Position numbers and translations under genes: made by a program | The notes under the pieces: model-generated | Seen by the model: the letters and a program-made list of their open reading frames with translations, nothing else | Told to the model about the DNA's origin: nothing | Databases searched by the model: none | Assembly (NCBI GenBank): GCA_052327205.1 | Contig: CM126209.1 | Span: forward strand, 60,636,001 to 60,700,000 | Length of the DNA stretch: 64,000 nucleotides | From: Somniosus microcephalus | Lineage: Eukaryota | Direction: 5' to 3' | Shown here: in pieces, positions 5,744 to 45,444 of the stretch | How positions within the stretch are numbered: position 1 is the first letter of the stretch | Layout: each line of letters starts with the position of its first letter

Positions 5744-5827
5744 GTAAATGTAGGTCCTTTACAGTCAGAGACGGGAGAATTTATAATGGGGAATGAGGAA
5801 ATGGCAGGGAAAGTAAATAAATACTTT

Positions 5828-12614: not shown

Positions 12615-15267
12615 CTTACCTAAGGAAGGATATACTTGTCGTAGAGGGAGTGCAACGAAGGTTTACGAGATTGATTCCTCGGATGGAGGGACTGTTGTAT
12701 AAGAGATTGAGTAAACTAGGCCTGTATTCTCTTGAATTCAGAAGAATGAAAGGGGATCTTATTGAAGCATACAAAATTATTACAGGGCTTGATAGGGTGG
12801 ATGCTGGGAGAATGTTTCCCTTGGCTGGGGAGTCTAGAACCAGGGGCCACAGCCTCAAGATAAAGGGTAGGCCATTCAGGATAGAGATGAGAAGAAATTT
12901 CTTCACACAGAGGGTGAATCAATCTTTGGAATTCGCTATCCCAGAGGGCTGTGGAGGCTCAGTCATTGGGTATATTCAAAACAGAAGTCGATAGATTTCT
13001 GACTAGTATAGGCATCAAGGGATATGGCGATAGGGCCGGTGAATGGAGTTGAGGCAGAAGATCAGCCATGATCTCATTGAATGACGGAGCAGGCTCGAAG
13101 AGCCAAATGGCCTACTCCTGCTCCTATTTCTTATGTTCTTATGAACACCAACTAAAGCTACAACAGATGTCTAATCAGTATAGTCAATTATGTTTCTTTG
13201 TTTCTCTCATGCATGCACTCATTCTCATACTCTGCTAAGAAGAAAACAGTCAATATAAATTTTGCCTGAAGGAGTGAAGTTTGCACTCAGGGTAAATCCA
13301 ATGACAGACACATACAAAAACACTTACAATCTGTTGTTTATGTATAGGTCTTTGCATTTCAATGGATATTGATTTTTTTCAGAAACAAGAGTGCATTCAA
13401 GCTTTTTTCACTGAACTTGTACGGACCTCCAAAAATTATGTGCTACTTGTTCTTATGCTAAATTGTATTTTTTGCTATTTTAAGTAGCTGCTTAAAACAC
13501 CCAAGTAGAACCTATGTAAAAGCACGACAGAGGCCACACACACAGTACAATGTTCAGGTTTGCTCACTATTTACAAAAAGACAGAACTGAAGGATTTGCG
13601 GGCAAACGCACTACCTGGTGTACTATGCCAAATAAACCACGAATGTCCCAGTTTTGATTTCTAACCAGTTCATGTTGAGTTAGCAGATCTCAACCAGCAC
13701 TACTTGTTTCACACCCCAACCCAAGCCAATGCCTTTGGAAGAAAATTAAAATGTTTAAGAGAACTGAAAGAATTCAAAAAGTTAAAAACTTACTTTAGAT
13801 TATAGTAAAACAAGCTCAATTTATTGTTTTTTAAAATGGGGACAATTACCATAAACTTTTGAACATTAAGTAACTCACTATTGAACCCTTTTTATCCCCA
13901 ACTTGTAAGTCAATGCAATTATACAAATCCAACTATTTTAGCCCCATTAGCTAGATTACTTCTTAAAAATAATCTGAGATCATTAAACAGGTAAATTTAG
14001 ACCCAAGTGACAGCAGCAAAAAAACAAAGTTGACCACAAAGTCTTTGCATTTTCCTCCCAAATGGTTATCAAGAATCTGAAACAAGAATATACAGCTGTA
14101 AAATAGCTTAAACTCAAAATGGTAGCGTGTGGTATTCAGCACTGAAATAGGTATCATTGGTAAATTGCCAAATTGTGTACAGCCTGTGACATCTCCCAGC
14201 TATGTGCCTCTCTGCAATATATATGTAAATCCATTCATACGAATTCAGAGGACATGCATTGAAGCAGCCGGATAAAGGACACAAATTGTTTATTTACTCA
14301 TTTCCCGCATTTACTGTCTCAAGGGCTCTTGTCACGAACTTCCTAATTTGTAGTTTACTTAGTTATTATTGATATCAATTAGAACACATACTTGGATTCC
14401 AGAATCAGCTGCAAAGCTCCAGTTTCTTATTGCCAACACTGCACCAAATAATTACGTACATTTCTACTTTTGACCTGATATGTGGTTGAAAGTGTTAGCA
14501 CGTACACAATGTAATATTACCATGTGGCAGTGCAACGATTAGCAATTCAAAGGTGGTCTTTCCTGTGGGGGCTAATTAAAATTCAACAAACTGCAGTGAT
14601 TTTTTTCACAAAGAAAAATAAATTCTCTGTCTTTCAGTTTAATAGTTAAAAATCTGGGTCATTGTATTAATATTCAGTGATAAGATGTGAAAAGTACTGT
14701 ACTGGCCTCGCTAGACGTGCTCCTATCTAGTTATCCAGCAAGTTAAACACTTATTCAAAATAATTCCTCGTGAAGCCGTTTGCTGTTTTGAAGCTTTACT
14801 TGAACAAATTTGTGAAACTGTAAACAAAGACAAAGTATGTTTTGTACATAAACTGAGTACTATACATTTGATATTACATAAGATATAAACATATTTACAA
14901 CAGTAGAATAGATTAATTGTATAACTAACTAACATTTGGACTAACTTCTGTAACTATCAAATATTAACCTTTTATAAACATAGTGTTATCAAAATACTAC
15001 TCTGACAACGTTGCTATTATGCTAACAAACAAAGATACTCAGATATTGCGCTTGGCCTAACATAGATGATCAGATTACATTGGATTGCAAATCCCTCATG
15101 GAATTCTCCATTACTCAAGCCAGGTTTTTCCTGGAATTCCACTTCCTGGGTCACACAGGAAGAAAGGTACCTCTCACACAGACACTGTTAACACATAACC
15201 ACCACCAGAGGGTGCTATCTGCATGTAAAATGTCCATAATGTCCAGAACACGCCCCATCTGGGGTCG

Positions 15268-18200
15268 TTAACGACTCCACATAGTCCGAATTCTACTTGT
15301 CACTGGAGTCCTCTGGCGACAAAAGAAGAACCACCTTGGAGACGGTCCATCGGTGTCGATGATAGGATGCAGCTTCCGTAGACTGTGAGGGGGTAGGTTG
15401 CGTTCGTTTACGCACAGTTCCAATCTGGGTATGGCGAGGTCTGGCTGGGGTGCCAATTTGCCTCTATCAAAGACGAAGCCAATTTTGCTTTGTCCTTCTT
15501 GAGTGGTGACCTTTAGATAAGCCACACTTACAATGGCCTCAGCGGATGCGTCTGCAAAGACGCAAAGCTCTTTGAATTGGGCATTTAAGGGAGAGAAAGA
15601 TGAATAGCAGCGAGGTATTTGGATCTCCTGCAAGTCTTGGAGTGAGTCTCTCCATCTGTCCCACTCTGCTTCCATCTCTTCAGGGAGAGGTGAATCCCAC
15701 TCTTCAGCGCATGTGGAGAGTTCCCTGAGGAGCAGCCTGCCTTGTATGGTGACAGGGGCTAAGAAGCCAAGAGGGTCGTATAGGCTGTTGACTGTAGAGA
15801 GCACTCCTCTACGTGTGAAGGGTTTCCTGGCATCTAAGACTTGGAACGTGAACGTGTCTGTTGCTATGTTCCAAGACACTCCTAGACTATGCTGTAGGGG
15901 GAGGTCAACAGTGAAGAGGTCTAGGTCCTTGACGTCCTTAGCACGATCTTCAGGGGGGAATGCCTCCATCACTGCTGGTCTGTTAGAGGCCATCTTGTGC
16001 AGCCTGAGGTTGGATAGTGCAAGTAGTTCCTGAACTCGTCCAAGGGTACTGATGGCCTCTGCTTCGGTCGGGAATGACTTCAGTGCGTCGTCGACATAGA
16101 ACTCTCGTTTGATGAACCCTCTCACATCACTGCCAAAGTCGTCGTCTTCCTTGGCAGCCCTCCTTAGTCCATATATGGTGACAGCAGGGGATGGGCTATT
16201 CCCAAAGACATGGACACGCATTCTGTAGTCCACAATGTCTCTATTGGGGTCATTGTCCCGATACCACAGGAAGCGGAGGAAGTCTCTGTGGTCTTCTCTC
16301 ACCACGAAGCAATGAAACATGTGCTGGATATCGGCAGTGATGGCGATGGGCTCTTTCCTGAATCTCATGAGTACTCCCAAGAGGCTGTTGTTAAGATCGG
16401 GCCCTGTGAGGAGTACGTCGTTAAGAGAGACTCCCTGATATGGTGCACTGGAGTCAAACACCACGCGGATCTGTTTCGGCTTTTTGGGGTGATAGACTCC
16501 GAAGGGAGGTACCAACACTCTTGGCCTTCCTGGAGTGGAGGAGCTATCTCTGCATGATCGTTGACAAGCATTTTCTTGACAAATTCTAGGAAGTGTGCTT
16601 TCATCTTTTCAGATTCCTGGCGACGTCCTACAGGGTACACATTAACGAGGCATATCTTGGAGCATGCTCTTGCGCTCACTCCTTCTCCACACAACTCGGT
16701 GCACCTGGATGTAATCTCCGGACCGGCAGCTCCCTCTCTCTCCCCGCCGTGCTCGGAGGTGGGAGAAGGCGACTCGGACTTCCAAGGAGCTGGGCCTGGG
16801 TGGAGTGCCGAAATGTGCCGATCACTTTCACATTCAGTGCATTTTGCATCTACCTTGCAGTTCTCGGCGAGCTGGCTCGTGGATGAGCAGCACTTGAAAC
16901 ATAGAGTTCTCTTTAAGATATTGTTTCCGATCTTCCAGGGACATCTCCCTGAAGCCTCTGCACTTTAATGGATGGGGCTTCTTGTGGATAGGGCATTGTT
17001 TGCTCATATCCTCAAGTTTCTTCTGAAACTTTGTGTTCTCAGTTGAAGACACTTGCATTTTGTTGACAGATATTGGTGTCTTTCCATGTCTGTTGAACTT
17101 GTCTCTTCTGGCAAGTGCTGTGTGGGAGAAGAGGAGGTTGAAGCTGGGGTCGTTCCTGGCTTTGGCTTCTTTACGGATGAATTTGACAAAAACGCAGAGA
17201 ATGGTGGGAAGGCCACGTTGTGCTTTAGCTTGAACTTTGATCCAAACGTTATCCACTTCTCCTGCAGGTTAAATGGAAGCTTCTCAATGATGGGACTTAC
17301 CCCTCTGGAAGTGTCTAAGTACGATAGACCGGGTAGGTAGCCATCCTGCTTTGCGGCTTTGAGTTCCGACAGCAGATCTCCAAGGTCGCGGAGCTTCTGG
17401 GGTTCCTTACTCGTCAACCTCGGAAAGTTCTCCAACCTGTCAAAGAGAGCCCTTTCAATGGGTTCGGGCGAGCCGTAGCTTTCTTCCAGCCTCGCCCAAG
17501 CCATCTTCAACCCCTCTGGCAGCTGTCCCACATTGGCCACTTTTATCCTGCAGGCCTGTCCGGCGGACTCTGGGCCGAGCCATTTGATAAGGAGGCCGAG
17601 CTCCTCTCCTGCCAACAGGTCTAAGTCCGATATGGCATCGTGGAAGCCGGACTTCCAAGCCGGATAATTCTCCGGCCTGTCATCGAATTTGGTTAACCCT
17701 GTAGTCACCAGCTGGGTACGTGCAAGGTATTTGGCAAGGTCGTAGGTGCTGGGACCTGTGCCAGGGTTGCCTTGGCTAGGGGCTCTGTTGGGGGTCTCAA
17801 GGAAATGAGAGGGGATTTGCTGCTGACTTTCTCTATTCAGTGTTCTATTCCTCTGCACTGTGTCTTCTGTTCTGCTGGGGGAGACTCTGCGGCTTGAGGC
17901 ACGCTGTCTACTTTGACCTTGGTTGGCAACTTGGGGCATGTTATACGAAGTGCTTGCGTCTGTAGAGATGTGCGGGCCTTCATCCCTTTCTCCTGTAAGC
18001 TGTATGTCAGCATGGTCGCTCACGTAATCTACGGTGCGCTGTCGTGGACTCTGCCACGAAACGGGAATTAAAGGTTTGTAAGCTGTCTCAGGATCAGCTC
18101 CCTCCAAAATTGCTTCGAATACTTGCGTCTCAGCTAATGCAGCATCTATCTCTTTTTGTTGCTGCAGAGCGTCTAATGTGGCGTGGAGACGGGCCTGTTC

Positions 18201-18653
18201 AGCCTGGCGTTCAACTTGGTGACGGGCCTGTTCAGCCTGGCGTTCAACTTGGTGACGGGCCTGTTCGGCTTGGAGTCGGGCCTGTTTGGCTTGGGATTCA
18301 GCTTGGAGTCAGGCCTGTTCGGCTTGGGATTCAGCTTGGAGACGGGCCTGTCTTACTTTTATTTCTATTTCACTGTTCGCATGCGCAGCTCTGGCTTGCG
18401 CTGCCACTAGCTTAGCCTGTGCTCTGGCGATGGTCACGCTTACTCTAGAACCACCTGATGACCGTGAACCAGCTTGCGATCTGACGTAACCGGAGCTTAT
18501 AGACCGATTGTCACCTTCTACAGTTTTATCTGCCCGTTTAAGGTCTTCTTGCTGCAAAGCATTCTCGTTATTATCTTCTGACATGTTGATGTGCGGTAGG
18601 TGAGTTCTACGAGGCCAAGGCTTACACTGGGTTCCTCTTGCTCCGCTCTTCAC
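15268..18653 (-). pseudogene. BEL/Pao gag-pol remnant
   Basis: ORF pieces 18309-18653, 17004-18107, 16834-17256, 16365-16694, 15268-16518; gag Cys/His motifs; frameshifts and deletions. Confidence 0.88.
18186..18350. repeat. Coding tandem repeat (27-33 bp units) in the BEL gag N-terminus
   Basis: GACGGGCCTGTTCAGCCTGGCGTTCAACTTGGT-type units repeated about 5 times. Confidence 0.8.
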
Positions 18654-19776
18654 AGCTAGCCGTGTTGCTATCTTTTCACTTTATCTTTTCACTGTACTGG
18701 CCTCGCTAGACGTGCTCCTATCTAGTTATCCAGCAAGTTAAACACTTATTCAAAATAATTCCTCGTGAAGCCGTTTGCTGTTTTGAAGCTTTACTTGAAC
18801 AAATTTGTGAAACTGTAAACAAAGACAAAGTATGTTTTGTACATAAACTGAGTACTATACATTCGATATTACATAAGATATAAACATATTTACAACAGTA
18901 GAATAGATTAATTGTATAACTAACTAACATTTGGACTAACTTCTGTAACTATCAAATATTAACCTTTTATAAACAGTGTTATCAAAATACTACTCTGACA
19001 ACATTGCTATTATGCTAACAAACAAAGATACTCAGATATTGCGCTTGGCCTAACATAGAAGATCAGATTACATTGGATTGCAAATCCCTCATGGAATTCT
19101 CCATTACTCAAGCCAGGTTCTTCCTGGAATTCCACTTCCTGGGTCACACAGGAAGAAAGGTAGAAAGGTCAAATGACCGCTCACACAGACACTGTTAACA
19201 CATAACCACCACCAGAGGGTGCTATCTGCATGTAAAATGTCCATAATGTCCAGAACAAGTACAATTAGATATTTAAACTGTAAGGGGGAGAAATTCGGTT
19301 GGTTGCGCCAGCGATTAGCGCCTAAAGAGGCCGAGAAGTGGGGCATTAGCCAATTTTCACCCATTTTCGCCCGTGCACAGTGGACCCAGCGCCTCTTGCT
19401 ATATTGAGTGGGTTTTAGCGCCCGCTCGTGGGCACAGGCAGATCATGACATAATTTCAGTGTGCAATGCCTTTTTGGCGCCCCGGACTGGAAATTGAGTG
19501 GCGCCCGCCTCCGTTCCGCCTGGCGCTAATAGTGACAGCTTGCTGGAAAGTTCCCAAGTCCTTCTCAGGCTAGGGGGGTGCTATTTAAAGGGGGCTGCAC
19601 TAGTATAAAAGCGGCAGCCATTTTGGGTGGGCATCTTGCTGGTTGTTGGAGAGAGTTGCTGACCTTCAGTAGGAGAGCACACTTTTCATTGAGCCAGCGG
19701 TGCCTTTGGACCTTCAGCCCTGTCCACAACAGTTTGCTGGTGAGATATTACTGCATCTTACTTCTTTCACATTATA

Positions 19777-26103: not shown

Positions 26104-27088
26104 GGCAACAGAAAGCATAACTAACACATAACTGTCTGGCAAACCTGCGACACTACCCAAAACATGACCAACATTCAAAGCAGGTGTAGACGGCCTTGAA
26201 TTCTACAAATGAGACGTCTCAACAGCTCCCTCTACTCTTTACCCCTTGATGGAGATCTACTTCTCTTACGAGATCGGCCCCTTCCCTCCCTGCAGCTCCT
26301 CCATAATTGGACCCCAGTAGCTGCGTCAAGGCTGGGGGACGCCTGCTGAGTGTCCGAAAGCGCAGAAGCCCGAGGGACGGCCTGGACGACCTCTGGGCTT
26401 GGAGGGCCCGGTGTAAAGTCTGTGGGTTGTGCAGTTAATAAATACACAGACTTCAGAAGTAACAAACAAACAGGTCTTTACTATTCGAAGGTCCGGGCGA
26501 ATCTGCCCCAGCAATCCTGCCACAACACTTATATACTGGTGTGGTCACTATCAGTATTACAGTATACAGAAGCCAAACAAATAGTGCCACACCTAAAGTA
26601 GTTCTCTTAAAGGTGAACGGTTACATTCAATAGTTCCCTTAAAGGTAGACGGGTACATACACTACAATCCTCCTTTTTTAGCTTATTACTTAGAGTCCCC
26701 GTTAAACATACATAACTTCAACTTCCTATAAAACAAATTACAGATATAATCTCGGTGGAGTCAATGTCATATAAAACAATTTACAGATATAATCTTGGTG
26801 GGAACAGTTCACAGGTTCAGTCTCTGCGGAAACAGTTCATAGAGTCAGTCTCTGATCTTGACTCGTTCCAAACAACATCTCTTTGGTGTAGCCGGTTCAC
26901 ATGGCTAGAGTGACTCCTCCATAGCCTTTTTCTTGACGTAACAGCTTGAACTTTCGTCCTGTTGAACCAGCAGTGCGGACTTTTACAACCAACTGGCTGT
27001 CTTGACATTTTCCAGTTTTTCAACTAATTTAGCTCCTCTCGTAGTGTCCCGCCTGAGATGGTAGAAGTGCTAATATTTTAGACAGTTA

Positions 27089-27345
27089 TTATCTTCTGCT
27101 TCTTCTTTTTCTTTTCTGCCTTTTTGAAACTCTCGGAGCTCCTTTCTCGGCTGCCAGCTGTAGCGCCACCAACTCTCTATGTTCCTTAGACCTTAAGTGC
27201 TTCATCCGGATTTCAGCACTTCGGGAGTTTTCATCACAAGCTGGGCAGACCACATCCTCGTAATATTCAGTGTCACTCAACAGGTCATGGTAATATTCGG
27301 GTTCGTCCTGAGTTAGGCCAGCGAGAGAGCCTTCTTCCTCCTCAC
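27089..27345 (-). pseudogene. Captured C2H2 (JAZ/matrin-type) zinc finger plus basic tail resembling DNAJC21
   Basis: EYYEDVVCPACD...MKHLRSKEHRELVAL...APRVSKRQKRKRR resembles recalled DNAJC21 ELYDDLYCPACD...KNHEKSKKHREMVAL...APKQKLSKKQKKKK. Confidence 0.68.
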
Positions 27346-27742
27346 CCGTCTGGACGTTAGCTGACGGTGGTTCCTTCCCTAGACATCTTTCTTGAAAAGA
27401 CTTCTTCATGCATTCATATTCATCCCGCTCTTCCTGGGTTATCTGCCATTCCTTCACGACGGACCTCATTTGTGAGTTCAATACCTTCCCTTCCATCGGG
27501 AATTGCGTTATCAGGCTATTTAATCCTTCTACTGAAGTAACGGTTTCCACATTCTTCTGTTCACCTTGACGTGATTCAACGTACTTTTGGCATCCTTGTA
27601 CAATTTGTGTTGCCACCTCAGCTATCTCCGTGACTTTTGAGAGCGCCGAACTCATTCCCCCTGAAGATTGAAGCTCGTGTTCAGATTGTCCCCCTTGCAG
27701 AGTCTTGTCCTTCAGCATATGAAGGAGTTGGCTGACCGTTAA

Positions 27743-28462
27743 CTCTTCCCTGGGAACACGGTGGATCAGAGTCTTCTCCATTTCATCCACCTTTTCCTCC
27801 AATACTTCCACCTTCTGTTCCTCTTGAACTTTGGCTTTCAGCGCTCGGAAAAGTTGCGCCCTGATGCTCTCTAGTTCATGTTCAGGGACCATTCTTACAG
27901 TCTGAGTTTCTTGCAGTTTCCTTTTCTTCCACTGAAAGGATTCCCAGTTGAATCTGTTCTTCAAGTTGTTGAACCTCGGTCATTGCCGCCTCATATTTGT
28001 CTTGGGTGTCCTTCAATGTTTTTATGAGTTCTTGGACATCCTGTCTTTCATGCTCTGCCATGTTTTTCCCCTCTAATTTCTCATCTATGGATGGAACTTC
28101 TACCGATGAGTCTGTCTTGGCCTTGAGCTCATCAAGAATTTCCTGCAGCCTTTGGACTTCTTGCTCATGTTCAACCTTTAGTTGTTCATATGCTTCTACT
28201 GAAACTAGCTTTTCGGAGGTTGCCGAGTTAACCCCCTCCAGAATTGTAGCCTGAGCCTGTTCATACTGTTCTTTCAACTTCTCACACTCTGCTTGTAAGG
28301 AGTCGTAGAGAAGAACTGGGATAAAATCCTGGCTTCCTGAAGATTCCTCTTCCTTTGGTTCGTTCTGTAAATATTCTAGTTCCTGAACAGCATCAGGGGA
28401 ATGTGATTGGTATTTGGCCACGATGGCTCTATGGTCGCTCTCTGCTTGAGCTAGCTGTCTGT
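27743..28462 (-). pseudogene. Captured coiled-coil fragments resembling the ANKRD24/RAI14/UACA family
   Basis: FIPVLLYDSLQAECEKLKEQY resembles recalled human ANKRD24 [49 protein letters not shown] resembles recalled RAI14 [28 protein letters not shown]. From memory, not a search. Confidence 0.7.
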
Positions 28463-29982
28463 TGTCTTTCCAGGTTCTCCCATTCGGTGTCCCAGAACTT
28501 TTCCATATTTTTCATCTCTTGTACGAGACGGTCACTCAACTGTTCTAATTGTTGTCGTACTTTGACATAAGTTTGAGTCCGAACTCGGTGTTCTTCCGTC
28601 GTGGATGAATCCTTTGCTTGAACAGGCTCAGAATTCTCTGTCAACCTGGAGTTCTGCTCTGCAGCTTTATTCTTCTTGGTAACATAAGTCCTTCTGCATG
28701 TCTTCGTTTTCTTCCCCATCGTCGGCAAGTCCCTTTTTGCCTTGTCTTCCATATTCGAATTGGTCTTATCATCATCCATTTCAGAATCTGAGCTAATAGC
28801 TTGCACCGAGTCCTCCCTCATTATGGCTTTTAGGTAATGCCCTTCCATGTCTATTTTCTTAATCCACTCCCGCCCTAGAAGTGGTGGTCCTCCCTCAGGT
28901 AATACGTACAAGTTCATTCTTGGGTGTTCTTTACCCCTATCTCTCACCTTGACTCTTATTTTCCCCACGGGGTATACGTTATGCCCAGTGTATGTCTGTA
29001 ATACGAACTTGGTATTTCTTAAAGGTACGTGAGAGAATAGCCGGTGGTAGTCCCTTCGGTTGATGACTGATAGAGCTGATCTAGTGTCCAGCTCCATTCT
29101 TACTTGGACTCCAGCTATTTTTAGTATGACCCAGATGGTCTGTAGATCCATTTCTTTACCCACATTGTGGATTCTCAGACTACCCAGCTCCTGGTTGTTT
29201 GGGTCTGAGTCTGAATTCTGTTCATCTGAACTCTTCTCAGCCACCTTGTGTACCTTTTTGTACTTTTCTTGTGGTGGCTTCCTTTGATTGTTGGTCTTTT
29301 TCCCGGACCGGCATACCTTCGCGATGTGACCCAGTTTGCCACATTTCCTACACTCTTGGTTCTTAAACCAGCATTGATTCTGATCATGCGTTGCCTTCAC
29401 ACAACGGTAGCATTTTGTTGTGCTTGAAGTAATTTGGTCCACCCCGAGTGCCGCCGCCTTTAGTTGCATTTCCGCCGTTCCTTTCGCTGCGGCTTCATGC
29501 GATGCAGCTATAAGGACAGCCCTGTCCAGTGTGAGGTCGTTCTCTTCCAGTAGTCGCTTCTGCGTCCCTTCTTTGGACAATCCGCATACGAACTTGTCCC
29601 GCAGCGCTTCTGTCAGATTCCCTCCGAACTGGCAGTATTTCGCTAGCCTACGCAGTTCGACCAAGTATTCCGCATTGCTTTCGTCTTTCCTCTGCGTTCT
29701 TGCGTAGAATTTGAATCGTTCAGCCAGCATCAATGGTGTGGGGTTCAAGTGGTCCTTCAGCACAGCCACAATCTCTTCGAATGTCTGATCCGCTGGTTTA
29801 TTTGGTGCTATTAGATGCTTCAAGAGCCCGTATGTTTTTGCCCCCATCGAGTTTAGCAATGTTATCGCCTTGTCGTCTTCCTCTATTTTGTTGGCTTCGC
29901 AATAGATCTCTATGCGTTCCACGTACGTGGCCCAGTCTTCTATTTCAGAATTAAAGTCGTTAATGTTCCCTCGCTTAGGCAT
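28429..29982 (-). CDS. Gag (2 CCHC) plus aspartic protease (DTR variant) plus non-retroviral charged/coiled-coil extension, 517 aa
   Basis: Aligns to A and B up to PPLLGREWIKKI, then diverges completely; catalytic DTG reads DTR. Confidence 0.9.
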   Translation of the reverse strand: MPKRGNINDFNSEIEDWATYVERIEIYCEANKIEEDDKAITLLNSMGAKTYGLLKHLIAPNKPADQTFEEIVAVLKDHLNPTPLMLAERFKFYARTQRKDESNAEYLVELRRLAKYCQFGGNLTEALRDKFVCGLSKEGTQKRLLEENDLTLDRAVLIAASHEAAAKGTAEMQLKAAALGVDQITSSTTKCYRCVKATHDQNQCWFKNQECRKCGKLGHIAKVCRSGKKTNNQRKPPQEKYKKVHKVAEKSSDEQNSDSDPNNQELGSLRIHNVGKEMDLQTIWVILKIAGVQVRMELDTRSALSVINRRDYHRLFSHVPLRNTKFVLQTYTGHNVYPVGKIRVKVRDRGKEHPRMNLYVLPEGGPPLLGREWIKKIDMEGHYLKAIMREDSVQAISSDSEMDDDKTNSNMEDKAKRDLPTMGKKTKTCRRTYVTKKNKAAEQNSRLTENSEPVQAKDSSTTEEHRVRTQTYVKVRQQLEQLSDRLVQEMKNMEKFWDTEWENLERQQTASSSRERP

Positions 29983-31569
29983 CTTTCTTCCCTTGGGAGC
30001 AGCACCAGTATTTCTTTAAGTATTCTTATTTATTTGTTTGTTTCTAAGATGGCGGTTTTCCCGCGAAATCGGCGGTTTCCCGCTCTTCCTTTCTTGCCCC
30101 GCCCACTTCAATGGCGGTTTCCCGCTTCTGGCGTCTTCTCCGCCTAATGGCGGCTTCCCGCGTTTCTTCCCGGTGGAAGGGGTACGCTTCCCCCACAGCG
30201 GATAGATTCAGCCGCTGGCTGGCTTCCGCACAGCTCCCCTTACTCGGCTATGTCTTTTCCTCCCGCCCGCACGGCTCTACCGGCGCTGGGTACACCCCGT
30301 TAACGGAGGACAGTTCAGCCGCTGGACTGGCTCTCGCGCAGTCTCTCTCTCCATACCCGGCTCTGTCGCTCCCTCTCCCGCACGTTCGGTTCTACCGGCT
30401 CTGGGTACCCCGCTGGTGGAGGACAGCTCAGCCGCTGGACTGGCTCTCGCGCAGTCTCTCTCCCCTTGCTCGGCTCTGTCTCTCTCTCCCGCCCGCACGG
30501 TTCCTGTTCGCCTCCCAGCCCTCTCGCAGACCGGTGTTTCCCTCCCCGGCTGCGGCTGGGTTTCTCTTCCCGCGCCTACTCACAGTCTCAGCGCTTCGTG
30601 GCTGCGGTCGCTGCCCGGTTTTCCCGCCGATCGAGGTCCGACTGTCTCACGACGCCGTTGGACCCGACTTTCTGACCGGCTCTGTTCCCCCTCTGGATAT
30701 TCTCTACACCTTCCCCTACTCACAGTCTCCGCGGCCGCCTTGTTTCCAGCTGATCGGCTCACTCCGCACCGTGGTAGAAGGGTAGTCAGTGCCTGTTGCA
30801 GATGGAAGCTTTTATTGCTAAAGTCTTCCTCCTTCCTCCTGCTGCAGCCTCGTGTTTTCTTTCAGCAGCACGACGAGGGCGGTTGCCTCTCTTCGACGCT
30901 CTTCATTGCTTTGGTAGTCTTGCCGCAGGGTACGATCGGACTCGTCGCCACTGTAAAGTCTGTGGGTTGTGCAGTTAATAAATACACAGACTTCAGAAGT
31001 AACAAACAAACAGGTCTTTACTATTCGAAGGTCCGGGCGAATCTGCCCCAGCAATCCTGCCACAACACTTATATACTGGTGTGGTCACTATCGGTATTAC
31101 AGTATACAGAAGCCAAACAAATAGTGCCACACCTAAAGTAGTTCTCTTAAAGGTGAACAGTTGCATTCAATAGTTCCCTTAAAAGGTAGACGGGTACATA
31201 CACTACACCCGGATGCTGACTGCTCCAACTGTGCATGGTTGGAAGCAGTCTGTCCTGCAGGTGGTGGCAGCTGCAGTGGAGACGTGCCAGCGGTGGCATC
31301 AGGAATGCTTACATCCTGAGAGCGGACACCTGCTCCGTGGTCGGCTGACACACTGGCATTCTGACGGTGCAGCACCGCAGAATGCGCCACAATCGGCTGG
31401 TCCACAGATTGATGGCCTGCTGTGGTGCTGCAAGGGCCCCGGGTAATCCTGCCTGAGCCAGCTAGGGTGGCAGCAGTCAGTGTTCGCGTGGCCTCAATCT
31501 GCGTGTGCAGGAGGCCAGCAAGTGACTGCGTGGCAGCACTGAGCACTTGCGTGGCAGGTGCCAGTGCTT

Positions 31570-31805
31570 CGGAGAAGCCCTGGACAGTCCTTGCCACTGC
31601 TTCGGACAAGGCTGGGACAGCCCTTTCCACTGCTTCGGACAAGGCCGGGAGAGCCCTTTCCACTGCTTCGGACAAGGCCGGGACAGCCCTTTCCACTGCT
31701 TCGGACAAGGCCGGGACAGACCTTTCCAGGGCTGGCCTGAAGCCCTGGACAGTCCTTTCCATTGCTGCCCCGAAGCCCTGGACAGTCCTTTCCATTGCTG
31801 CCCCA
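31570..31805. repeat. 33-bp coding tandem repeat (~7 units) in the Myb/SANT gene
   Basis: CCCTTTCCACTGCTTCGGACAAGGCCGGGACAG-type units, encoding ALSEAVERAVP / GFGAAMERTVQ. Confidence 0.9.
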
Positions 31806-33422
31806 AAGTCCTGCACACTCTTTGCCTCGATGGAGTCAGGCATCCTCCCCACTGCAGCCATCAGCTCAGTGTGCCTGAGCCGAGCCTGGGCACTCATTTC
31901 TGAACAGCTACGCACCTCCTCTGCACTCTGTGCAGCAGTCATCATGGCCTGCCTCGCCCTCCGGGGAGACGGCCCCCGAGCTTCCCTACCCCCCTCGCGT
32001 TGCTGCAGCCCGCTGGTTCCTGCAACTGGTTCCTCATCAGAGACCCCCCCTCCCCTCCAGGGACCTACTATCCCCAGTCTCCAGATGGGCTGGCTCCCGA
32101 GGCTGGCATGGATGTTCCGGCTTCCTCCTGCTCGTTGCCTCCGGAGGCAGTGGCACTGGCAGCTTGAGGGCCCGGCTCCCGAGCTGGTGATGCAGCATCT
32201 GAAAGCAGGGAGGTTGAAGAGTGGCTTTAGCGAAAGGACAGGGTGGCAGCAAGGGATGCAAGATTGCTGCAATGCTATGACATGGGTCCAGAGTGAAAAA
32301 GCATGCTGGTGGGGGGGAACAAGAGGAAGGAGACAGCTCAAAAAGGTGAGGACCATACCATCACTGTGCACAATGGGGTCGGCAGCTCCAGTGGTGACAG
32401 GACCAATCATACGGCCTCCAACAATCTGGTGGACTTTCTCTTCGAGATCCGTGAGAGTCTGGAGTTGAGGACGTCCTCCTCCGGTGCGAAGCTGCTCCTT
32501 GCGGTTCCTCGCCAGCTTGGCCTGCAGGAAAAAGGACGGGAAGTGATGAAACATGATGCCCTGAGTTGTCATCTCATGCCCCCCATGGTGGAAGAACCCT
32601 TACATCATGCCCTGAGTTTAATGTGCATGTATGTTCCCAGAAAGGGCCATGGGTGCTTGCTGACAGATGGCCAATGGGGCATCGCGCTCCCTCTGGTCAT
32701 AAAGTCAGGTGCAGATGGAGGGATGAAGAAGTTTGACGAAACACCACTCACCCTCACGGCCCGAGTAAGGTCATTTAATTTCTTCCTGCACTGCACAGGG
32801 CTCCTGGTCACCATGCTGTTGGAGTTGACCTTTTGAGAAACTTCCCTCCAAGCTCTTCGGTATTCCTTCTGATTAGGCCTCCTGCCATTGTCGGGGTACA
32901 GCACATCTCGCCGGCGCTCCACTGCGCCTACCAATTCATCCAATGCCCCATTGGTAAAGCGCTCCGCTCTCTGCCTCACCCTCTCCATCTTCTCAAAGTT
33001 TGTAACACCACAGAAAGGCCAGCTCTGATTTTGAGGCCTACAAGGCGCAGAGTGTGGCTGCTGATCCTTACTGACCCACCCCTTTAAGAGCTGGCCGGTG
33101 CCTGAAAGTCTCGTGGTCATCGGTAATTGACAGCACCTGCGCTGCGCCCGCCCGCCCCTATATGGAGTAGCGCTGCCAGGTTAGCGCCTTAGGAGTCCCA
33201 TGTAACGCCCGATTTTGTGCCTCAATCACCTTTAGGGGCGCTGCAACCCAATATCGTGCGAGGTGGCGATAAGTTGCGTCTGGCTATAAAATTTGCGCAG
33301 CGCCAATTCTAACGCCCCAAGCGGGGCTATACCCAATTTCTAGGCCTAAATGTTTCATTTAAGTATTCCTTCACCATGCAACTCCCACCATTTCTCACTA
33401 AGATGCCTGCTCCAGACTTGTC

Positions 33423-35537
33423 AGAAACATAGAAACATAGAAGATAGGAGCAGGAGTAGGCCATTTGGCCCCTCGAGCCTGCTCCGCCATTCAATGCGAT
33501 CATGGCTGATCATCCAAATTTAGTACCCGGTCCCCGCTTTCTCCCCATACCCCTTGATCCCTTTAGCCTTAAGAAATATATCCAACTCCTTCTTGAATAT
33601 ATTTAAGGTATTGGCCTCTACTGCCTTCTGTGGTAGAGAATTCCACAGGTTCACCACTCTCTGGGTGAAGAAATTCCTCCTCATTTCTGTCCTAAATGGC
33701 TCACCCCTTATCCTTAGACTGTGACCCCTGGTTCTGGACTCCCCGACCATCGGGAACATCCTTCCTGCATCTAGTCTGTCCAGTCCTCTCAGAATTTTAT
33801 AAGTTTCAATGAGATCCCCTCTCATTCTTCTAAACTCCAGCGAGTACAAGCCCAATTGACCCAATCTCTCCTCATATGTCATTCCTGCCATCCCAAGTAT
33901 CAGCCTGGTGAATCTTCACTGAACTCCTTCCATGGCAAGAACATCCTTCCTCAGATAAGGCGACCAAAACTGCACACAATGCTCAAGATGTGGTCTCACC
34001 AAGGCCCTGTACAACTGCAGCAAGACATCCTTGTTCCTGTACTCAAACCCTCTCGCTACGAAGGCCAACATGCCATTTGCCTTCTTAACCGCCTGCTGCA
34101 CCTGCATGCTTACCTTCAGCGACTGGTGCACAAGGACACCCAGGTCTCGTTGCACTTCCCCTTCTCCCAATCTATTGCCATTCAGATAATAATCTGCCTT
34201 CCTGTTTTTGCCACCAAAGTGGATAACCTCACATTTATCCACGTTATATTGCATCTGCCATGCTTTTCCCCAATCACCCAACCTGTCCAAATCATCCTGG
34301 AGTTTCTCGGCATCCGCCTCACAGCACACACGCCCACCCAGCTTTGTGTCGGCTGCAAATTTGGAGATATTACATCTAGTTCCCTTGTCTAGATCATTAA
34401 TATATATTGTGAATAGCTGGGGTCCTAGCACCGATCCCTGCGGTACCCCACTAGTCACTGCCTGCCACTCGGAAAAAGACCTGTTTATTCCAACTCTTTG
34501 CTTTCTGTCTGCCAACCAGTTCTCTATCCAAGTCAATACCTTGCCCCCAATCCCATGTACCTTAACTTTACACGCGAATCTCTTATGCGGGACCTTATCG
34601 AAAGGCCTTCTGAAAGTCCAAATACACCACATCCACTGGTTCTCCCTTATCTATTTTACCAGTTACATCCTCAAAAAATTCCAGTAGATTAGTCAAGCAC
34701 GATTTACCTTTTGTAAATCCTTGACTTTGTCCAATCCTGTCACTGTTTTCCAAGTGCTCTGCTATTACATCTTTTATAATGGACTCTTTGCATTTTCCCC
34801 ACTACCGACGTCAGGCTTACCGGTCTGTAATTCCCCATTTTCTCTCTACCACCTTTTTTGAATAGTGGGGTAACATTAGCTACCCTCCAATCCATGGGTA
34901 CGGTTCCAGATTCCATCGAATGTTGGAAGATGATCAGCAATGCATCTACTATTTCTAGGACCACTTCCTTGAGTACCCTAGGATGTAGATTATCAGGCCC
35001 ATGGGATTTATCGGCCTTCAATCCAGTCAATTTCCCTAACACCATTTCCCTACAAATACTGATTTCTTTCAGTTCCTCCCTTTCATCAGACCCTATGTTC
35101 CCCGACATCTGTGGGAGGTTATTTGTGTCCTCCTTTGTGAAGACAGAACCAAAATATGTATTTAATTGGTCTGCCATTTCTTTGTTCCCCATTATAAATT
35201 CCCCTGATTCTGACTGCAAGGGACCTACGCTTGACATCACCAATCTTTTTCTCTTCACATATCTATAAGAGCTTTTACAGTCAGTTTTTATGTTCCCTGC
35301 AAGCTTACTCTCATATTCTATTTTCCCTTTCCTAATTAATCCCTTTGTCCTCCTTTGTTGAATCCTAAACTGCTCCCAATCCTCAGGTTTACTGCTTTTT
35401 CTGGCCAATATATATGTCCTCTCCTTGGATCTTATGCTATCCCTAATTTCCCTTGTTAGCCATGGTTGAGTCACCTTTTTTGTTTTATTTTTATGCCAAA
35501 CTGGGATGAACAAATTCTGTAGTTCATCCATGCGGTC
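33423..35537 (-). mobile_element. CR1 LINE copy C, 5'-truncated
   Basis: RT ORF pieces 34740-35612, 33916-34632, 33520-33891; (CATAGAAA)n tail on the + strand. Confidence 0.93.
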
Positions 35538-36531
35538 AGTAGTCAGCTTCAGCTTGCAATTAAGATAGTAGACTTGTATTGACTGCAAATTTCCCTCACT
35601 GTGGGAAGCCATCTCTTACTACACAATACACACATGGTAAAGAATTCAGTGAGTGAATCTGCAGACATAAATTCTAACTATACCTATAACATAACAGAGA
35701 CTCCATATATCAAACTATGATAGAGATAAAAACAAAACATGGATTGAAGCTTTGAAGGGGTTCCAGGCTCTAGACCTCACGTTGTATTGAATTTAACTTT
35801 GATTTATTGATCTAAAACCCAAATAGCGTGAAGCATTTTTTTTGGGCTGCAATGCCCATTCTTTACCTTACTGATGCTTTGTAACAAAGCCAAGCCCAGG
35901 ATCAACACATGGTGTACTGAGCCACATGCAATTTTTTGTGGACACAACAAATGAATCAATGGCAATAGTGTGCATGTGATTCATCACACCTATTGCAATT
36001 GCTGTTTGTTTTGATGTTGCAGTAATGAAACAGAAATGGCAAAGCAAAAGCACATGAAAATTGCAGCAGTTAGCTGCTATTGAGGAGGTTCACACCTGTA
36101 CCAAGAAAATTGAAGTTGCTCAAGTATTGCCACCAAATACACCGTCAACGTGGCTCAAGATGGGGTTGAGCTCTGCCGAAGTACAAAATGAATGGCAATC
36201 TCAAAGGGCTAAAGAAAAGTCAATTTCCCTAAATAGCAGTAGTGATAAATAGTTTAAGAGGAGAACAAAGTACAACAGTCAGTGGTGTTTTATTCATGAA
36301 ATAAAGGCAAGCCTGTTACCAAACAGCTTCATTTTGCTCAGGAAGACTTCAGAGGAAGCATTGACTGGCTTCAGAAGCATGGCATAGCATTTTCAACAGC
36401 AAAGCCAATTCTATAATGGCAGAAATGGCTAATGATTGGTGCCAAATGAGAGTGGTTACTGTTTACAGCCTGTTTTAAATGCAGAATATTTTGAAGCCAA
36501 GTGTTCTGTTTGGTGAGAATTCTAACAGGCC

Positions 36532-39500
36532 AACATAGAAACAAAGAAGATAGGAGCAGGAGTAGGCCATTCGGCCCCTCGAGCCTGTTCCGCCATTTAA
36601 CGAGATCATGGCTGATCATCCAAATTCAGTACCCTGTCCCCGCTTTCTCCCCAGATCCCTTTAACCTTAAGGAATATATCTAACTCCTTCTTGAATATAT
36701 TTAATAAGTTGGCTTCAACTGCCTTCTGTGGTAGAGAATTCCACAGGTTCACCACTCTCTGGGTGAAGAAATTCCTCCTCATCAGTCCTAAATGTCTTAC
36801 CCTTTATCCTTAGACTGTGACCCCTGGTTCTGGACTCCCCCACCATCGGGAACATCCTTCCTGCATCTAGTCTGTCTAGTCCTGTTAAAAATTAATACGT
36901 TTCAATGAGATCCTCTCATTCTTCTAAACTCTAGCAAATATAAGCCTAATCGACCCAATCTCTCTTCATACATCATTCCTGCCATCCCAGGTATCAGTCT
37001 GGTGAATCTTCGCTGCACTCCCTCCATGGCAAGAACATCCTTCCTCAGATAAGGTGACCAAAACTGCACACAATACTCAAGGTGTGGTCTCACCAAGGCC
37101 CTGTACAACTGCAGCAAGACATCCTTGCTCCTGTACTCGAATCCTCTCGCTATGAAGGCCAACATACCATTTGCCTTCTTAACCGCCTGCTGCACCTGCA
37201 TGCTTACCTTCAGCGACTGGTGCACAAGGACACCCAGGTCTTGTTGCACTTCCCCTTCTCCCAATCTATTGCCATTCAGATAATAATCTGCCTTCCTGTT
37301 TTTGCCACCAAAGTGGATAACCTCACATTTATCCACATTATACTGCATCTGCCATGCATCTGCCCAATCACCCAACCTGTCCAAATCATATTGGAATTTC
37401 TTGGCATCCTCCTCACAGCACACACGCCCACCTAGCTTTGTGTCATCTGCAAACTTGAAGATATTACATCTAGTTCCCTTGTCTAGATCATTAATATATA
37501 TTGTGAATAGCTGGGGTCCTAGCACCGATCCCTGCGGTACCCCACTAGTCACTGCCTGCCACTCGGAAAAAGACCCGTTTATTCCAACTCTTTGCTTCCT
37601 GTCTGCCAACCAGTTCTCTATCCAAGTCAGTACCTTACCCCCAAATCCCATGTGCTTTAACTTTGCACGCCAATCTCTTATGCGGGACCTTATCGAAAGC
37701 CTTCTGAAAGTCCAAATACACCACATCCACTGGTTCTCCCTTATCTACTCTACCAGTTACATCCTCAAAAAATTCCAGTAGTCAAGCATGATTTACCTTT
37801 TGTAAATCCATGTTGACTTTGTCCGATCCTGTCACTGTTTTCCAAGTGCTCTGCTATTACATCTTTTATAATGGACTCTAGCATTTTCCCCACTACCAAT
37901 GTCAGGCTTACTGGTTTATAATACCCCGTTTGCTCTCTACCACCTTCTTTAAATAGTGGGGTTACATTAGCTACCCGCCAATCCATGAGAACTGTTCCAG
38001 AGTCTATAGAATTTTGGAAGATGACCAGCAATACATCTACTATTTCTAAGGCCACTTCCTTAAGTACCCTAGGATGTAGATTATCAGGCCCTGGGGATTT
38101 ATCGGCCTTCAATGCTGTCAATTTCCCTAACACCATTTCCCTACAAATACTGATTTCATTCAATTCCTCCCTCTCATTAGACCCTATGTTCCCCGACATC
38201 TCTGGGAGGTTATTTGTGTCCTTTGTGAAGACAGAACCAAAGTATGTATTTCATTGGTCTGCCATTTCTTTGTTCCTCATTATAAATTCCCGATTCTGAC
38301 TGCAAGGGACCTACGCTTGACTTCATCAATCTTTTTCTCTTCACATATCTATAGAAGCTTTTACAGTAAGTTTTTATGTTCCCTGCAAGCTTACTCACAT
38401 ATTCTATTTTCCCCCTCTTAATGAATCCCTTTGTCCTCCTTTGCTGAATCCTAAACTGCTCCCAATCGTCAGGTTTGCTGCTTTTTCTAGCCAATTTATA
38501 TGTCCTCTCCTTGGATCTTATGCTATCCCTAATTTTCCTGGTTAGCCACGGTTGAGTCACCTTTGTTTTATTTTTATGCCAAACAGGGATGAACAAATTC
38601 TGTAGTTCATCCATGCGATCTTTAAATGTTTGCCATTGCCTATCCACCGTCAACCCTTTAAGTAACGTTCCCTAATCCATCCTAGCCAACTCGCGCCTCA
38701 TACCATCGTAGTTTCCTTTATTTAAATTCAGGACCCTAGTCTCCGAGTCAACTACTTCACTCTCCATCTTAATGAAGAATTCTATCATATTGTGATCGCT
38801 CTTCCCCAAGGGGCCTCGCACAACATTGCTAATTAATCTTTTCTCATTACATAAACCTAGTCTAAGAAGGTTCCTTGACATATTGGTCCAGGAAACCATC
38901 CCGTAAACACTCTAGGAATTCCTCCTCCACAGTATTGTTACTAATTTGGTTAGCCCAATCTATATGTAGATTAAAGTCACCCATGATAACTGCTGTGCCC
39001 TTATTGCACGCATCTCTAATTTCCCATTTAATGCCATCCCCAACCTCAGCATTACTGTTTGGGGGTCTGTATACAACTCCCACTAATGTTTTCTGCCCCT
39101 TGGTATTCCTCAGCTCTACCCATACAGATTCCACATCATCAGAGCTAATATCCTTCCTATTGTGTTAATCTCCTCTTTAACCAGCAATGCTACCCCACCT
39201 CCTTTTCGCCTGTCCTTCCTGAATATTGAATACCCCTGGATGTTGAATTCCCAGCCTTGGTCACCCTGGTGCCATGTCTCCATAATTCCAATTACATCAT
39301 AACCGTTTATATCTATTTGCGCAGCTAATTCATCCATCTTATTACGAATGCTCCTCGCATTAAGACACAAAGCCTTCAGGCTTGTTTTTGTTGTTGTTTT
39401 TTTTAACACTTAGTCCTTTTAGAATTATTATTTACTGTAGCCGTTTGATTTACACACTTGATTTCTCTGCCGTCCACTTTTGCTTTTCTCCTTCCTGTCT

Positions 39501-42318: not shown

Positions 42319-42405
42319 TTTCAAATAAAGCTGTTGGACTATAACCTGGTGTTGTGTGACTTCTTACATTTGTCCACCCCAGTCCAACTCCAGCATCTCC
42401 ACACC

Positions 42406-45060
42406 ATGGCTACTATCGACACCACAAACTGCCGGCTCAAAGTGGAGAGGATCTCCAAGAAGTTCGCGCATATCGACACAGACATCAAGTTTCTACAGAG
42501 ATGCAAGAAAGCAGACAAGATCCTGAAAGGACTACAGATCACGAACCCACTCAAGTCGACCTACAACACAGACTACGCTGAGAGACTCTGCCGTCGTACC
42601 TCCCGTACACTCCTCAACCATCTCGTACACCAGCTCTACAGCAGACGCCGCAACCTCGAAACCGAGACGGAGTCCATGTTCTCAGCCTGTGCTCAGGACA
42701 CAGCAGACCAGCTACGAGACACCGCCAAACAGACGAGGCAACGGAACTACGCTGCCTACATGCACACCAAGAACAGGAAGCTTGAGAAACTCGGCATCAC
42801 CAGCAGCAGCAACCAAGCCTCCCCTGGTACCACAGTTGAAACCACAGGGAAGTTCATCTTCAACCTGTCCGACTACACCCTTCAACCAGATGAAATTGAA
42901 GTTCTCAGCCGAGGGCTCAATTTCTGCCCCACCACCAAAATGGACCCCATCCATCTCGCGGCAGACACAGAGGAATTCATCAGGAGAATGAGGCTCCGGG
43001 AACTCTTCCACAAATCCCAAGATGTCAGCAGTGAACCCAATGAGACAATCAATGATCCGGAACAGCAGACAGAGGGATCCGCAGTGCAGCAACCGAAGAA
43101 ATAGTCAAATTGGACCCCTCCGGAGGGTCGCTGCCCTAAGCTTGACATGTATGCTCAAGCTGTCAGGAGATGCATCAACGCCAGATTCATCAGCCGCACT
43201 CACAAGACAGTCCAGAATGTCACCCGAGCACAACGCAACACCATCCAAGCTCTCAAGACCAACCGCAACATCATCATCAAACCAGCAGACAAAGGAGGAG
43301 CCATCGTCATGCAGAACAGAACGGACTATTGCAAAGAAGCATACCGACAACTGGACAACCAGGAACACTACAGACAGTTACCCACAGATCCGACCAAAGA
43401 ACACATCCGCCAACTCAACAGACTGATCAAGACCTTCGATCCAGACCTTCAAAGCATCCTACACGCTCTCATCCCACGTACTCCCCGCGTGGGAGACCTC
43501 TACTGCCTCCCAAAGATACACAAAGCCAACACACCTGGACGTCCTATCGTATCAGGCAACGGAACCCTGTGTGAGAACCTCTCTGGATATGTCGAAGGCA
43601 TCCTGAAACCCATCGTACAGGGAACCCCCAGCTTCTGTCGCGACACTACAGACTTCTTACAGAAACTCAGCACCCACGGACCAGTTGAACCAGGAACACT
43701 CCTCGCCACGATGGACGTCTCGGCACTCTACACCAGTATCCCCCACGATGACGGCATCGCTGCGACAGCCTCAGTACTCAACACCAACAACAGCCAATCT
43801 CCAGACGCCATCCTACAACTCATCCGCTTCATCCTTGACCACAATGTCTTCACCTTCGACAACCAGTTCTTTACCCAAGCACACGGAACAACCATGGGGA
43901 CCAAATTCGCACCCCAATACGCAAACATCTTCATGCACAAGTTCGAGCAAGACTTCTTCGCTGCACAGGATCTCCAACCAACGCTATACACCAGATACAT
44001 CGATGACATTTTCTTCCTATGGACCCACGGCGAAGAATCACTGAAAAGACTACACGATAACATCAACAAGTTCCATCCCACCATCAAACTCACCATGGAC
44101 TATTCCACAGAATCGGTTTCATTCTTGGACACATGAATCTCCATCAAAGACGGACACCTCAGCACTTCACTCTACCGCAAGCCCACGGACAACCTCACGA
44201 TGCTCCACTTCTCCAGCTTCCACCCTAACCACGTTAAAGAAGCCATCCCCTATGGACAAGCCCTGCGAATACACAGGATCTGCTCAGACGAGGAGGAACG
44301 CAATGGACACCTACAGACACTGAAAGACGCCCTCGTAAGAACGGGATATGACGCTCGACTCATCGATTGACAGTTCCGACGGGCCACAGCGAAAAATCGC
44401 ATAGACCTCCTCAGAAGACAAACACGGGACACAACCAACAGAGTACCCTTCGTCGTCCAGTACTTCCCCGGAGCGGAGAAACTACGCTGTGTTCTTTGCA
44501 GCCTTCAACATGTCATCGATGACGACGAACACCTCGCTAAGGCCATCCCCACGCCTCCACTAATCGCCTTCAAACAGCCGCCTAACCTCAAACAGACCAT
44601 CGTTCGCAGCAAATTACCCAGCTTTCAGGACACCACACAACCCTGCCACAGCAACCTCTGCAAGACATGCCAGATCATCAACACAGATACCATCATCACA
44701 CGTGAGGACACCACCCACCAGGTACATGGTACATACTCATGTGACTCGGCCAACGTTGTCTACCTCATACGTTGCAGGAAAGGATGCCCCGGAGCATGGT
44801 ACATCGGCGAGACCATGCAGACACTGCGACAACGGATGAACGGACACCGCGCAACAATCACCAGGCAGGAGTGTTCCCTCCCAGTCGGGGAACACTTCAG
44901 CAGTCAAGGACATTCAGCCTCCGATCTTCGGGTAAGCATTCTCCAAGGCGGCCTTCGAGACACACAACGCAAAATCGTCGAGCAGAAACTGATAGCCAAG
45001 TTCCGCACCCATGAGGACGGCCTCAACCGAGATCTTGGGTTCATGTCACGCTACATGTAA
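42406..45060 (+). pseudogene. Penelope RT plus GIY-YIG endonuclease ORF with in-frame stops
   Basis: KPADKGG, LPKIHK, RPIVS, DVSALYTSIP, GTTMG, RYIDD, CHSNLCKTC, VVY...WYIGET...RMNGH...GLN; stops at 43102, 44134 and 44368, all in one frame. Confidence 0.93.
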
Positions 45061-45407
45061 CCCCACCTGATGCAGGGTCATCCAGACTAGAGTCGACATT
45101 GGCTTGTTCTCTCTACACAGATGCGGCCGGACCTGCTGTGATTTCCAGCCAAAAAATGTTTTTTTGTCTGTTTTTTAGTTTTTCATACAGACCCCAGTAT
45201 CTGCAATATTTGACCCCTTGTGACCCCACCTCATTGTTCTTTGATGTAATGTTTCCCTGACTGACCTGTTTGGACACCATTCACACCTTTGACTGCTGTG
45301 ATTAGCTCTCTGCCGAGGTGTGATAAACGGCAGTTGGAAAGGTTACCTGTAAACATCTGACATGATTCTCTGACTATATAAGCTGTGTCTTTATGCATTT
45401 CTCCACT

Positions 45408-45444
45408 TCACCTGAAGAAGGAGCAGCGCTCCAAAAGCTTGTGA
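45408..45444 (+). ncRNA. Hammerhead motif copy, mutated (GAAA to AAAA)
   Basis: TCAC CTGAAGA AGGAGCAGCGCTCC AAAA GCTT GTGA, followed by AATAAA. Confidence 0.7.

Follow-up and report, generated by a model that had tools for sequence, protein, structure and literature searches.

A young, high-copy Gypsy retrotransposon family of Somniosus microcephalus carries Gag-fused host coding sequence, two pieces of which were likely copied from circular RNAs

Introduction

Acutely transforming retroviruses are replication-defective and helper-dependent, and carry gag-onc fusions that include spliced host sequence. Here we describe a Gypsy long terminal repeat (LTR) element that resembles them in having Gag fused in frame to host coding sequence and, probably, in depending on a helper, but which has no env and no sign of infection, and whose cargo consists of fragments without a kinase domain. 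It occupies 26412-31207, on the minus strand, of a 64,000-nucleotide stretch of Somniosus microcephalus DNA (assembly GCA_052327205.1, contig CM126209.1, positions 60,636,001 to 60,700,000; hereafter the window), and is one damaged member of a young non-autonomous family. This transducing family is real, young and present in high copy number, and its main point of interest is the likely circular-RNA origin of two of its captures. An earlier note, made from the window alone, had called the element oncovirus-like; the label is apt for the architecture only, the cargo being made of weakly constrained fragments.

The closest described systems each share a part of this picture. LTR-mediated retroposition, as set out in the accessible text of Tan et al. 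2016 (PMC5131818), likewise replaces internal open reading frames (ORFs) with mRNA pieces from several parental genes, and its products go through further rounds as non-autonomous elements; the median overlap at its switches is 6 bp, compared with 7-8 in the window family. The word 'circular' is absent from the main text of that study, and the window family differs from what is described there in its thousands of copies, a maintained Gag fusion of ~970 codons and a traceable series of captures. The marks of an LTR-mediated retrocopy are found here: intronless host sequence in place of internal ORFs, short shared sequence at the switches, and transcription of the element. The closest architectural match is maize Bs1 (PMC13317346), an LTR element with three host gene segments in one translated chimeric ORF. 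Bs1 is a plant element, and the accessible part of its account does not mention a back-spliced source, whereas the window family is vertebrate, draws on four genes and has >2,700 copies.

Reversed exon-exon junctions in genomic DNA are shared with the circular RNA (circRNA)-derived pseudogenes of Dong et al. 2016 (PMC4897178), where LTR sequence is over-represented in the flanks of the 33 copies of mouse circRFWD2. Those are pseudogenes whose mechanism is called 'mysterious' in the accessible text, while the junctions of the window family lie within a complete LTR element with primer-binding site (PBS), polypurine tract (PPT) and target-site duplication (TSD), share the reading frame of Gag, and leave the entry to and exit from the lap visible. 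As in circRNA-derived sequence, the joins are reversed at exact splice sites, and exons from outside the presumed circle are absent within the stretches examined. Wheat RLG_Quinta/RLG_Cereba (PMC11302176) and the semi-autonomous wheat families (PMC9744471) are described, as is probably the case here, as non-autonomous elements that keep Gag and have LTR, PBS and PPT motifs in common with a Pol donor. The accessible accounts of these wheat pairs mention no host cargo, and Cereba supplies all proteins, whereas the candidate donor here lacks ~90 Gag residues. The published literature searched, which left most subscription journals and the repeat databases outside, gave no account of the window family, nor of any mobile LTR family that had captured circRNA.

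The route of circular RNA back into genomes is left open in the accessible text of PMC4897178. The window family suggests a mechanism that can be named and tested: for two genes, an LTR element has kept the points of entry and exit together with the back-splice. In its junctions the family also documents circular RNAs that probably occur in the shark germline, and its sister families show stepwise exon shuffling at the scale of thousands of copies. The copies will make the gene families of the PKK domain, jaz-type zinc finger, ANKRD24 and optineurin look larger than they are, and will produce false back-splice calls in shark RNA-seq.

Results and discussion

A recently mobile family with an open Gag-protease-cargo frame

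Membership of the window element in a transducing LTR family is virtually certain. A search of the genome (6.45 Gb) with the cargo DNA gave 3,418 candidates, of which 40 were scored; 36 of these match at 97-100% and 4 at 86-87%. Ends were examined at 37 loci and, with two lacking the 5' LTR in the fetched stretch, 35 two-LTR loci remained. Exact 5-bp TSDs, all different, flank 31 of the 35, and the LTR pairs differ at 0-4 sites in 33 (the other two were misparsed); the loci lean young because they were chosen from the best matches. Among the 30 best loci fetched, the window copy included, 17 have an unbroken Gag-protease-cargo frame of 963-966 aa and 28 the canonical protease motif. Two subfamilies, of 966 aa and 977 aa, are ~85% alike. 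The ANKRD24 D-B junction described below has 2,712 exact matches in the genome, compared with 0 for the reversed control.

These counts bear out two proposals of the earlier note, that the family moved recently with its cargo and that its intact form has a single open frame with the protease motif restored. A separate insertion in a single copy, or an assembly chimera, is ruled out by the 36 of 40 matches at 97-100%, the 31 different TSDs and the 2,712 junction copies. An env-like or accessory ORF is likewise ruled out as the identity of the cargo, because host exons account for nearly all of it.

Two equal-scoring copies (L010 and L011, C8:137.03 Mb) lie 4.7 kb apart and are probably a tandem pair; L155/L156 are similar. 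A subfamily-2 copy (L051/L052, C13:62867070-62871962, TSD CTCAC) lies antisense in the host ANKRD24 intron between exons C and D. By our own estimate, the chance of an insertion in that exon block from copy number alone is ~0.3%.

Structure of the window copy and the four host genes in its cargo

The cargo is made of in-frame spliced host mRNA pieces from an STK10/SLK-family kinase, ANKRD24, optineurin and a DNAJC21-like zinc finger, arranged as follows (window positions).

31208..31212, no strand: TSD, 5' side, CCGGG on the minus strand
30952..31207, minus strand: 5' LTR, 256 bp, 91% identical to the LTR of Pol-bearing family L133
30941..30950, minus strand: PBS, TGGCGACGAG
29983..30940, minus strand: 5' leader with internal repeats, of differing length between copies
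28820..29982, minus strand: Gag, with capsid and zinc knuckles, together with the aspartic protease, whose active-site motif has changed in this copy
28453..28819, minus strand: STK10/SLK-family kinase mRNA piece, parts of exons X, Y and Z; host gene at C8:167.19 Mb
28449..28457, minus strand: ANKRD24 exon C, its final 9 nt, running across a splice into exon D; the partial overlap with the kinase piece is the switch point
28383..28448, minus strand: ANKRD24 exon D, complete, 66 nt; its donor end abuts the acceptor end of upstream exon B
28383/28382, minus strand: putative back-splice junction, D to B
27742..28382, minus strand: start of ANKRD24 exon B (~640 nt), a coiled-coil part with 93% identity to the host exon (C13:62.86 Mb)
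27340..27748, minus strand: optineurin mRNA piece, three intronless exons mapped in this copy; host gene at C17:85.88 Mb
Start of a fourth optineurin exon: mapped in sister elements; the 3' border of the optineurin piece is approximate
27093..27330, minus strand: DNAJC21-like C2H2 zinc-finger and basic piece; host exons at C1:4.79 Mb match 27206-27160 and 27133-27093
27089..27091, minus strand: stop codon of the fused frame
26914..27117, minus strand: remainder of the kinase lap, in which the last part of upstream exon W continues across a splice into the beginning of exon X; now mostly 3' untranslated region, ending near the capture start point
26667..26682, minus strand: PPT
26412..26666, minus strand: 3' LTR, 255 bp
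26407..26411, no strand: TSD, 3' side

The LTRs (256 and 255 bp, TG...CA ends) differ by 3 mismatches and 1 gap, and with the PBS, PPT and 5-bp TSD they agree with what had been reported for this copy. The PBS presumably fits tRNA-Ser; no tRNA gene was found within the window. The three ORFs are as previously described and give weak Gag, zinc-knuckle and protease matches in Pfam (E<=1). At the same threshold they give none for reverse transcriptase (RT), RNase H or integrase, whose absence the earlier note had also remarked; elements A and B of the earlier note have RT and RNase H. The Gag-protease is related to elements with protease-RT-RNase H-integrase order, while the RT and integrase of the element itself are missing. 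Its homology had been taken to stop at the residues GREWIKKI; the capture is real, but Gypsy homology extends ~10 codons beyond that point. The proposal that two frameshifts break a single joined frame is right in substance, although natural copies are open without repair (17/30) and the shifts lie near 28460, in the kinase piece, and near 27903, in ANKRD24 exon B.

Host source loci were located for all four cargo genes and every piece is in the host reading frame, confirming the suspected mosaic of host coding sequence fused to Gag-protease. All pieces are, by our description, rich in coiled coil, and the kinase domain is absent. The ANKRD24 piece matches shark entries, several of them named 'ankycorbin', at 76% over 220 aa, with a 27-aa C-terminal piece put in front; at the DNA level the host gene (C13) is 94% and 87% identical to the pieces of subfamily 1 and 96% to those of subfamily 2. 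The optineurin piece matches at 55% over 152 aa, and three host exons (C17) align intronless at 74-93%. A database search with the 70-aa kinase piece gave no matches, and the piece was identified via Pfam, sister elements and the host gene (C8), which is 68-90% identical to the window family and 97-99% to the sister elements. No intron remnants were seen in the optineurin and kinase cargo. A profile-free search with the whole cargo matched only 9 proteins, unnamed except for the ANKRD24 and optineurin entries.

The C2H2 finger and basic tail match two host exons at C1. We presume the gene to be DNAJC21, a name backed only by an Atlas lead: weak zinc-finger leads for the tail of the window family, and scores of 0.89-0.94 with DnaJ/ZUO1-type clusters for the sister version. 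A PDB search gave generic C2H2 matches, and PF21884 pointed to another gene rather than the source. No exons farther upstream in the DNAJC21-like gene turned up within 50 kb, and a source of the cargo stretch 27330-27207 was not located. Elsewhere in the genome, the STK10/SLK-family kinase gene has an intronless copy of its 3' coding end (L099, C3:354658271-354658909) that does not match the element.

Exon joins are reversed at exact splice sites

The order of the captured exons, which the earlier note missed, points to circular-RNA templates. Host ANKRD24 exons B (62861849-62863360), C (to 62866666) and D (62873348-62873413) all have AG/GT borders. In the element, the end of C is followed by the whole of D and then by B from its first base, so that C-D is a normal splice and D-B joins a downstream donor to an upstream acceptor. 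D-B is present in 34 of 35 loci. ANKRD24 contributed exons B, C and D alone, with A and E absent (exons upstream of A were not located in the host).

The kinase piece is circularly permuted. It begins inside exon X and reaches Z and, after the other cargo, resumes with W spliced to the start of X; Y-Z is spliced, and the passage from X to Y is an internal deletion at a 4-nt match rather than a splice. Sister elements contain an exact Z-W back-splice in 9 of 9 loci, with 916 genome matches, and enter exon X at nt 146 and exit at nt 159, i.e. one lap minus the X-to-Y deletion. The check for kinase exons outside the circle covered the fetched 80 kb.

Joins at C-D, D-B, Y-Z, W-X and within optineurin all coincide with host exon borders. 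Gene-to-gene switches, by contrast, fall inside exons and share 7-8 nt (five switches, judged by eye; the optineurin-to-zinc-finger switch was not resolved), while the reversed joins D-B and Z-W, sharing 4 and 2 nt by eye, lie on splice sites. From these exact reversed joins at splice sites we infer back-spliced templates, and consider it likely that both the ANKRD24 and the kinase captures were copied from circular RNAs.

Sister families suggest the order of capture

One sister family (L100-L108, L129-L132) has Gag-protease and the kinase lap with exact Z-W, often with inserted I-set immunoglobulin domains that we take to be titin-like and whose source was not located; PF12474 gave 16,568 first-look candidates in the genome. 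An intermediate family (L154-L162, L168-L174) holds the kinase, optineurin and zinc-finger pieces without ANKRD24, and its frames are often open over 960-1,000 aa. The zinc-finger pattern has 509 genome matches, the host exon among them. Judged from which pieces each family holds, capture would have begun with elements containing the kinase lap alone, or with immunoglobulin domains; optineurin and the zinc finger would then have been placed inside the kinase lap; and in the window family a fragment of the ANKRD24 circle would finally have taken the place of the stretch from exon Z to mid-optineurin. Sister elements L104, L108 and L101 have an extra block with a CxxC motif between the protease and the kinase piece.

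The element is transcribed

Two RNA runs, of which 24% and 31% of reads were used and whose organism label may differ from that of the genome, were mapped on a subfamily-2 copy together with host exons D-E. The element body is covered in both and unique intron bins are near zero. Strand depth in run X20 is ~41-288 versus 4-35, a bias that fits element-sense RNA if the library was stranded in the usual way; run X21 is less biased. Reads crossing from the kinase piece to exon D number 183 and 78 in the two runs, pooled over many copies. In runs X2 and X4, which have different organism labels, the kinase-to-exon-D join occurs in contigs of both, and the family may be common to related species.

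Gag is conserved while the cargo drifts

We compared the two subfamilies through 13 and 9 natural copies with unbroken frames, giving the ratio of nonsynonymous to synonymous rates (dN/dS) as ranges over two transition weights, with pairs that are non-independent. Between subfamilies, Gag has a dN/dS of 0.06-0.08 and protease one of 0.14-0.17, and the cargo as a whole reaches 0.51-0.69. By block, it is 0.59-0.80 for ANKRD24, 0.60-0.80 for optineurin, 0.44-0.62 for the kinase piece and 0.31-0.42 for the basic zinc-finger tail. The expectation of a cargo dN/dS below 1 thus holds overall, but the constraint is weak, and in the ANKRD24 and optineurin blocks the departure from 1 is not significant (p 0.08-0.51). 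The cargo has no stop codon, where ~176 neutral changes should have produced ~10-12, and the one pair aligned has two indels, each with a length that is a multiple of 3. As the frame is kept while residues drift, we read the cargo as filler, and on balance prefer this to a working cargo.

Alternatively, in line with the oncovirus analogy of the earlier note, the cargo could be selected as protein, its Gag-fused coiled coils and zinc finger helping the particle to assemble, to enter the nucleus or to escape host control, as an optineurin decoy would. All pieces lie in the host frame and are rich in coiled coil, the frame has stayed open across ~176 substitutions, the element is transcribed, and the overall dN/dS below 1, lowest in the zinc-finger tail, would suit such a role. 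In-frame host coding sequence, however, is also the easiest stop-free filler, the ANKRD24 and optineurin blocks (0.59-0.80) cannot be told from neutrality, and sister families have spread carrying different cargo. We therefore regard a protein function as possible but rather doubtful.

Other origins of the reversed joins

Reversed joins could also arise from linear RNA, either by trans-splicing of two pre-mRNAs or by forward splicing of a rearranged pre-mRNA copy in the element. Either route yields the same exact splice-site joins, even a full lap, and non-colinear joins are possible by routes other than circles according to the accessible text of Dong et al. (PMC4897178). The event must, however, have occurred in two genes, no ANKRD24 exon beyond the presumed circle was captured, and the remaining cargo is spliced throughout and shows no trace of introns. 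Moreover, back-splicing is the usual source of reversed exon joins. A linear origin is accordingly unlikely.

A backward jump of RT on linear mRNA, at short shared sequences that happen to coincide with exon ends, would be in keeping with the template switching behind all other joins and with the internal deletion at a 4-nt match, and D-B does share 4 nt. Yet when in-frame backward joins with 4 nt or more in common are counted across ANKRD24 exons A-E (exon A start approximate), only 1 of 3,785 lands on both exon borders, Z-W shares 2 nt only, and the event is needed twice; this possibility is close to refuted and very improbable. An ancient tandem duplication of host exon blocks, giving linear mRNAs with reversed joins, would predict identical junctions but is scarcely credible, with each host exon single in 90 kb (ANKRD24) and 80 kb (kinase) and no repeated B-D block in the alignment of the Heptranchias ANKRD24 protein.

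A candidate Pol donor with a shortened Gag

Lacking pol, the window family would depend on a helper. The earlier note had looked to elements of the A and B type, citing shared LTR motifs. That likeness is genuine but only approximate, at 49% and 54% of aligned columns; with Gag-protease identity of 58% and 65% and both elements broken, A and B were rejected as Pol helpers, and a Pol-bearing family with 91% LTR identity and PBS and PPT of the same type fits far better. A protease-to-RT junction pattern gave 5 genome matches, 4 of them in this one family (L133, L134, L175, L176) and the fifth distant. Its copies are young, with 0-2 LTR mismatches and their own TSDs. In 2 of 4 copies, protease, RT, RNase H and integrase lie in one open frame of 1,243 aa, and Gag residues ~9-99 are missing in 4 of 4. 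Neither the window element nor this candidate partner has a Pfam match to env, or room for it. Similarity at this level suggests that the L133-type family is the most likely Pol donor, which we favour with some reserve. Dependence between the two families may be mutual, and such complementation would explain the strong selection on the Gag of the window family.

Proposed mechanism

The explanation we find best, and consider quite probable as a whole, is that pol was replaced stepwise by four spliced mRNA pieces, two of them likely from circular RNAs. Host RNAs would have been co-packaged in the particle, where RT would switch template at short shared sequences; packaging of circular RNAs by retroviral Gag is described in the accessible part of a recent preprint (bioRxiv 10.64898/2026.01.21.700838). 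The first capture would be one round of the kinase circle, entered at nt 146 of exon X and left at nt 159, and later switches would place optineurin and the DNAJC21-like piece within the kinase lap, followed by part of the ANKRD24 circle. The family would spread with its own working Gag-protease and all cis signals, borrowing RT and integrase. As filler, the cargo would keep the frame open and the RNA near full length, and the open frame may guard the RNA against decay caused by an early stop. More tentatively, a vertebrate Gypsy lineage might repeatedly reverse-transcribe host circular RNAs within its particles, build new Gag-fused mosaic proteins of ~1,000 codons and multiply them into the thousands. 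It would then be one half of a split retrotransposon, the other half having Pol but a crippled Gag.

Several observations weigh against this explanation. The kinase lap is incomplete, owing to its internal deletion, and the Z-W join itself has been lost in the window family. A circle and a trans-spliced linear dimer are indistinguishable by sequence, and host circles were not seen directly in RNA, the two runs being blind to the host circle with a depth of 0 for host ANKRD24 exon E. The cargo dN/dS is below 1 overall at p 5e-5 to 0.03 (averaged, non-independent pairs), suggesting that some protein-level constraint is left. Synonymous divergence is 0.42-0.56 in Gag versus 0.15-0.18 in the cargo, which suggests recombination and weakens regional comparisons. 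Finally, the candidate partner comes from one strict pattern with 5 matches, and a complete autonomous parent may exist.

Surroundings of the element in the window

The element sits within a Myb/SANT-domain region with a 33-bp repeat array (26320-26406 and 31208-33180), whose frame picks up again past the TSD, with an AT-hook-like motif; we take the interrupted region to be probably Harbinger-derived. Another Gag, a close relative of the element family, lies at 1-1300 and extends beyond the window start. At 14696-19162 an LTR pair flanks broken ORFs, presumably of a BEL/Pao element judging by familiar motifs. On the same kind of evidence, we assume that 1412-7800, 33400-38700 and 42319-45541 hold several CR1-like long interspersed nuclear element copies and a Penelope-like element with terminal repeats.

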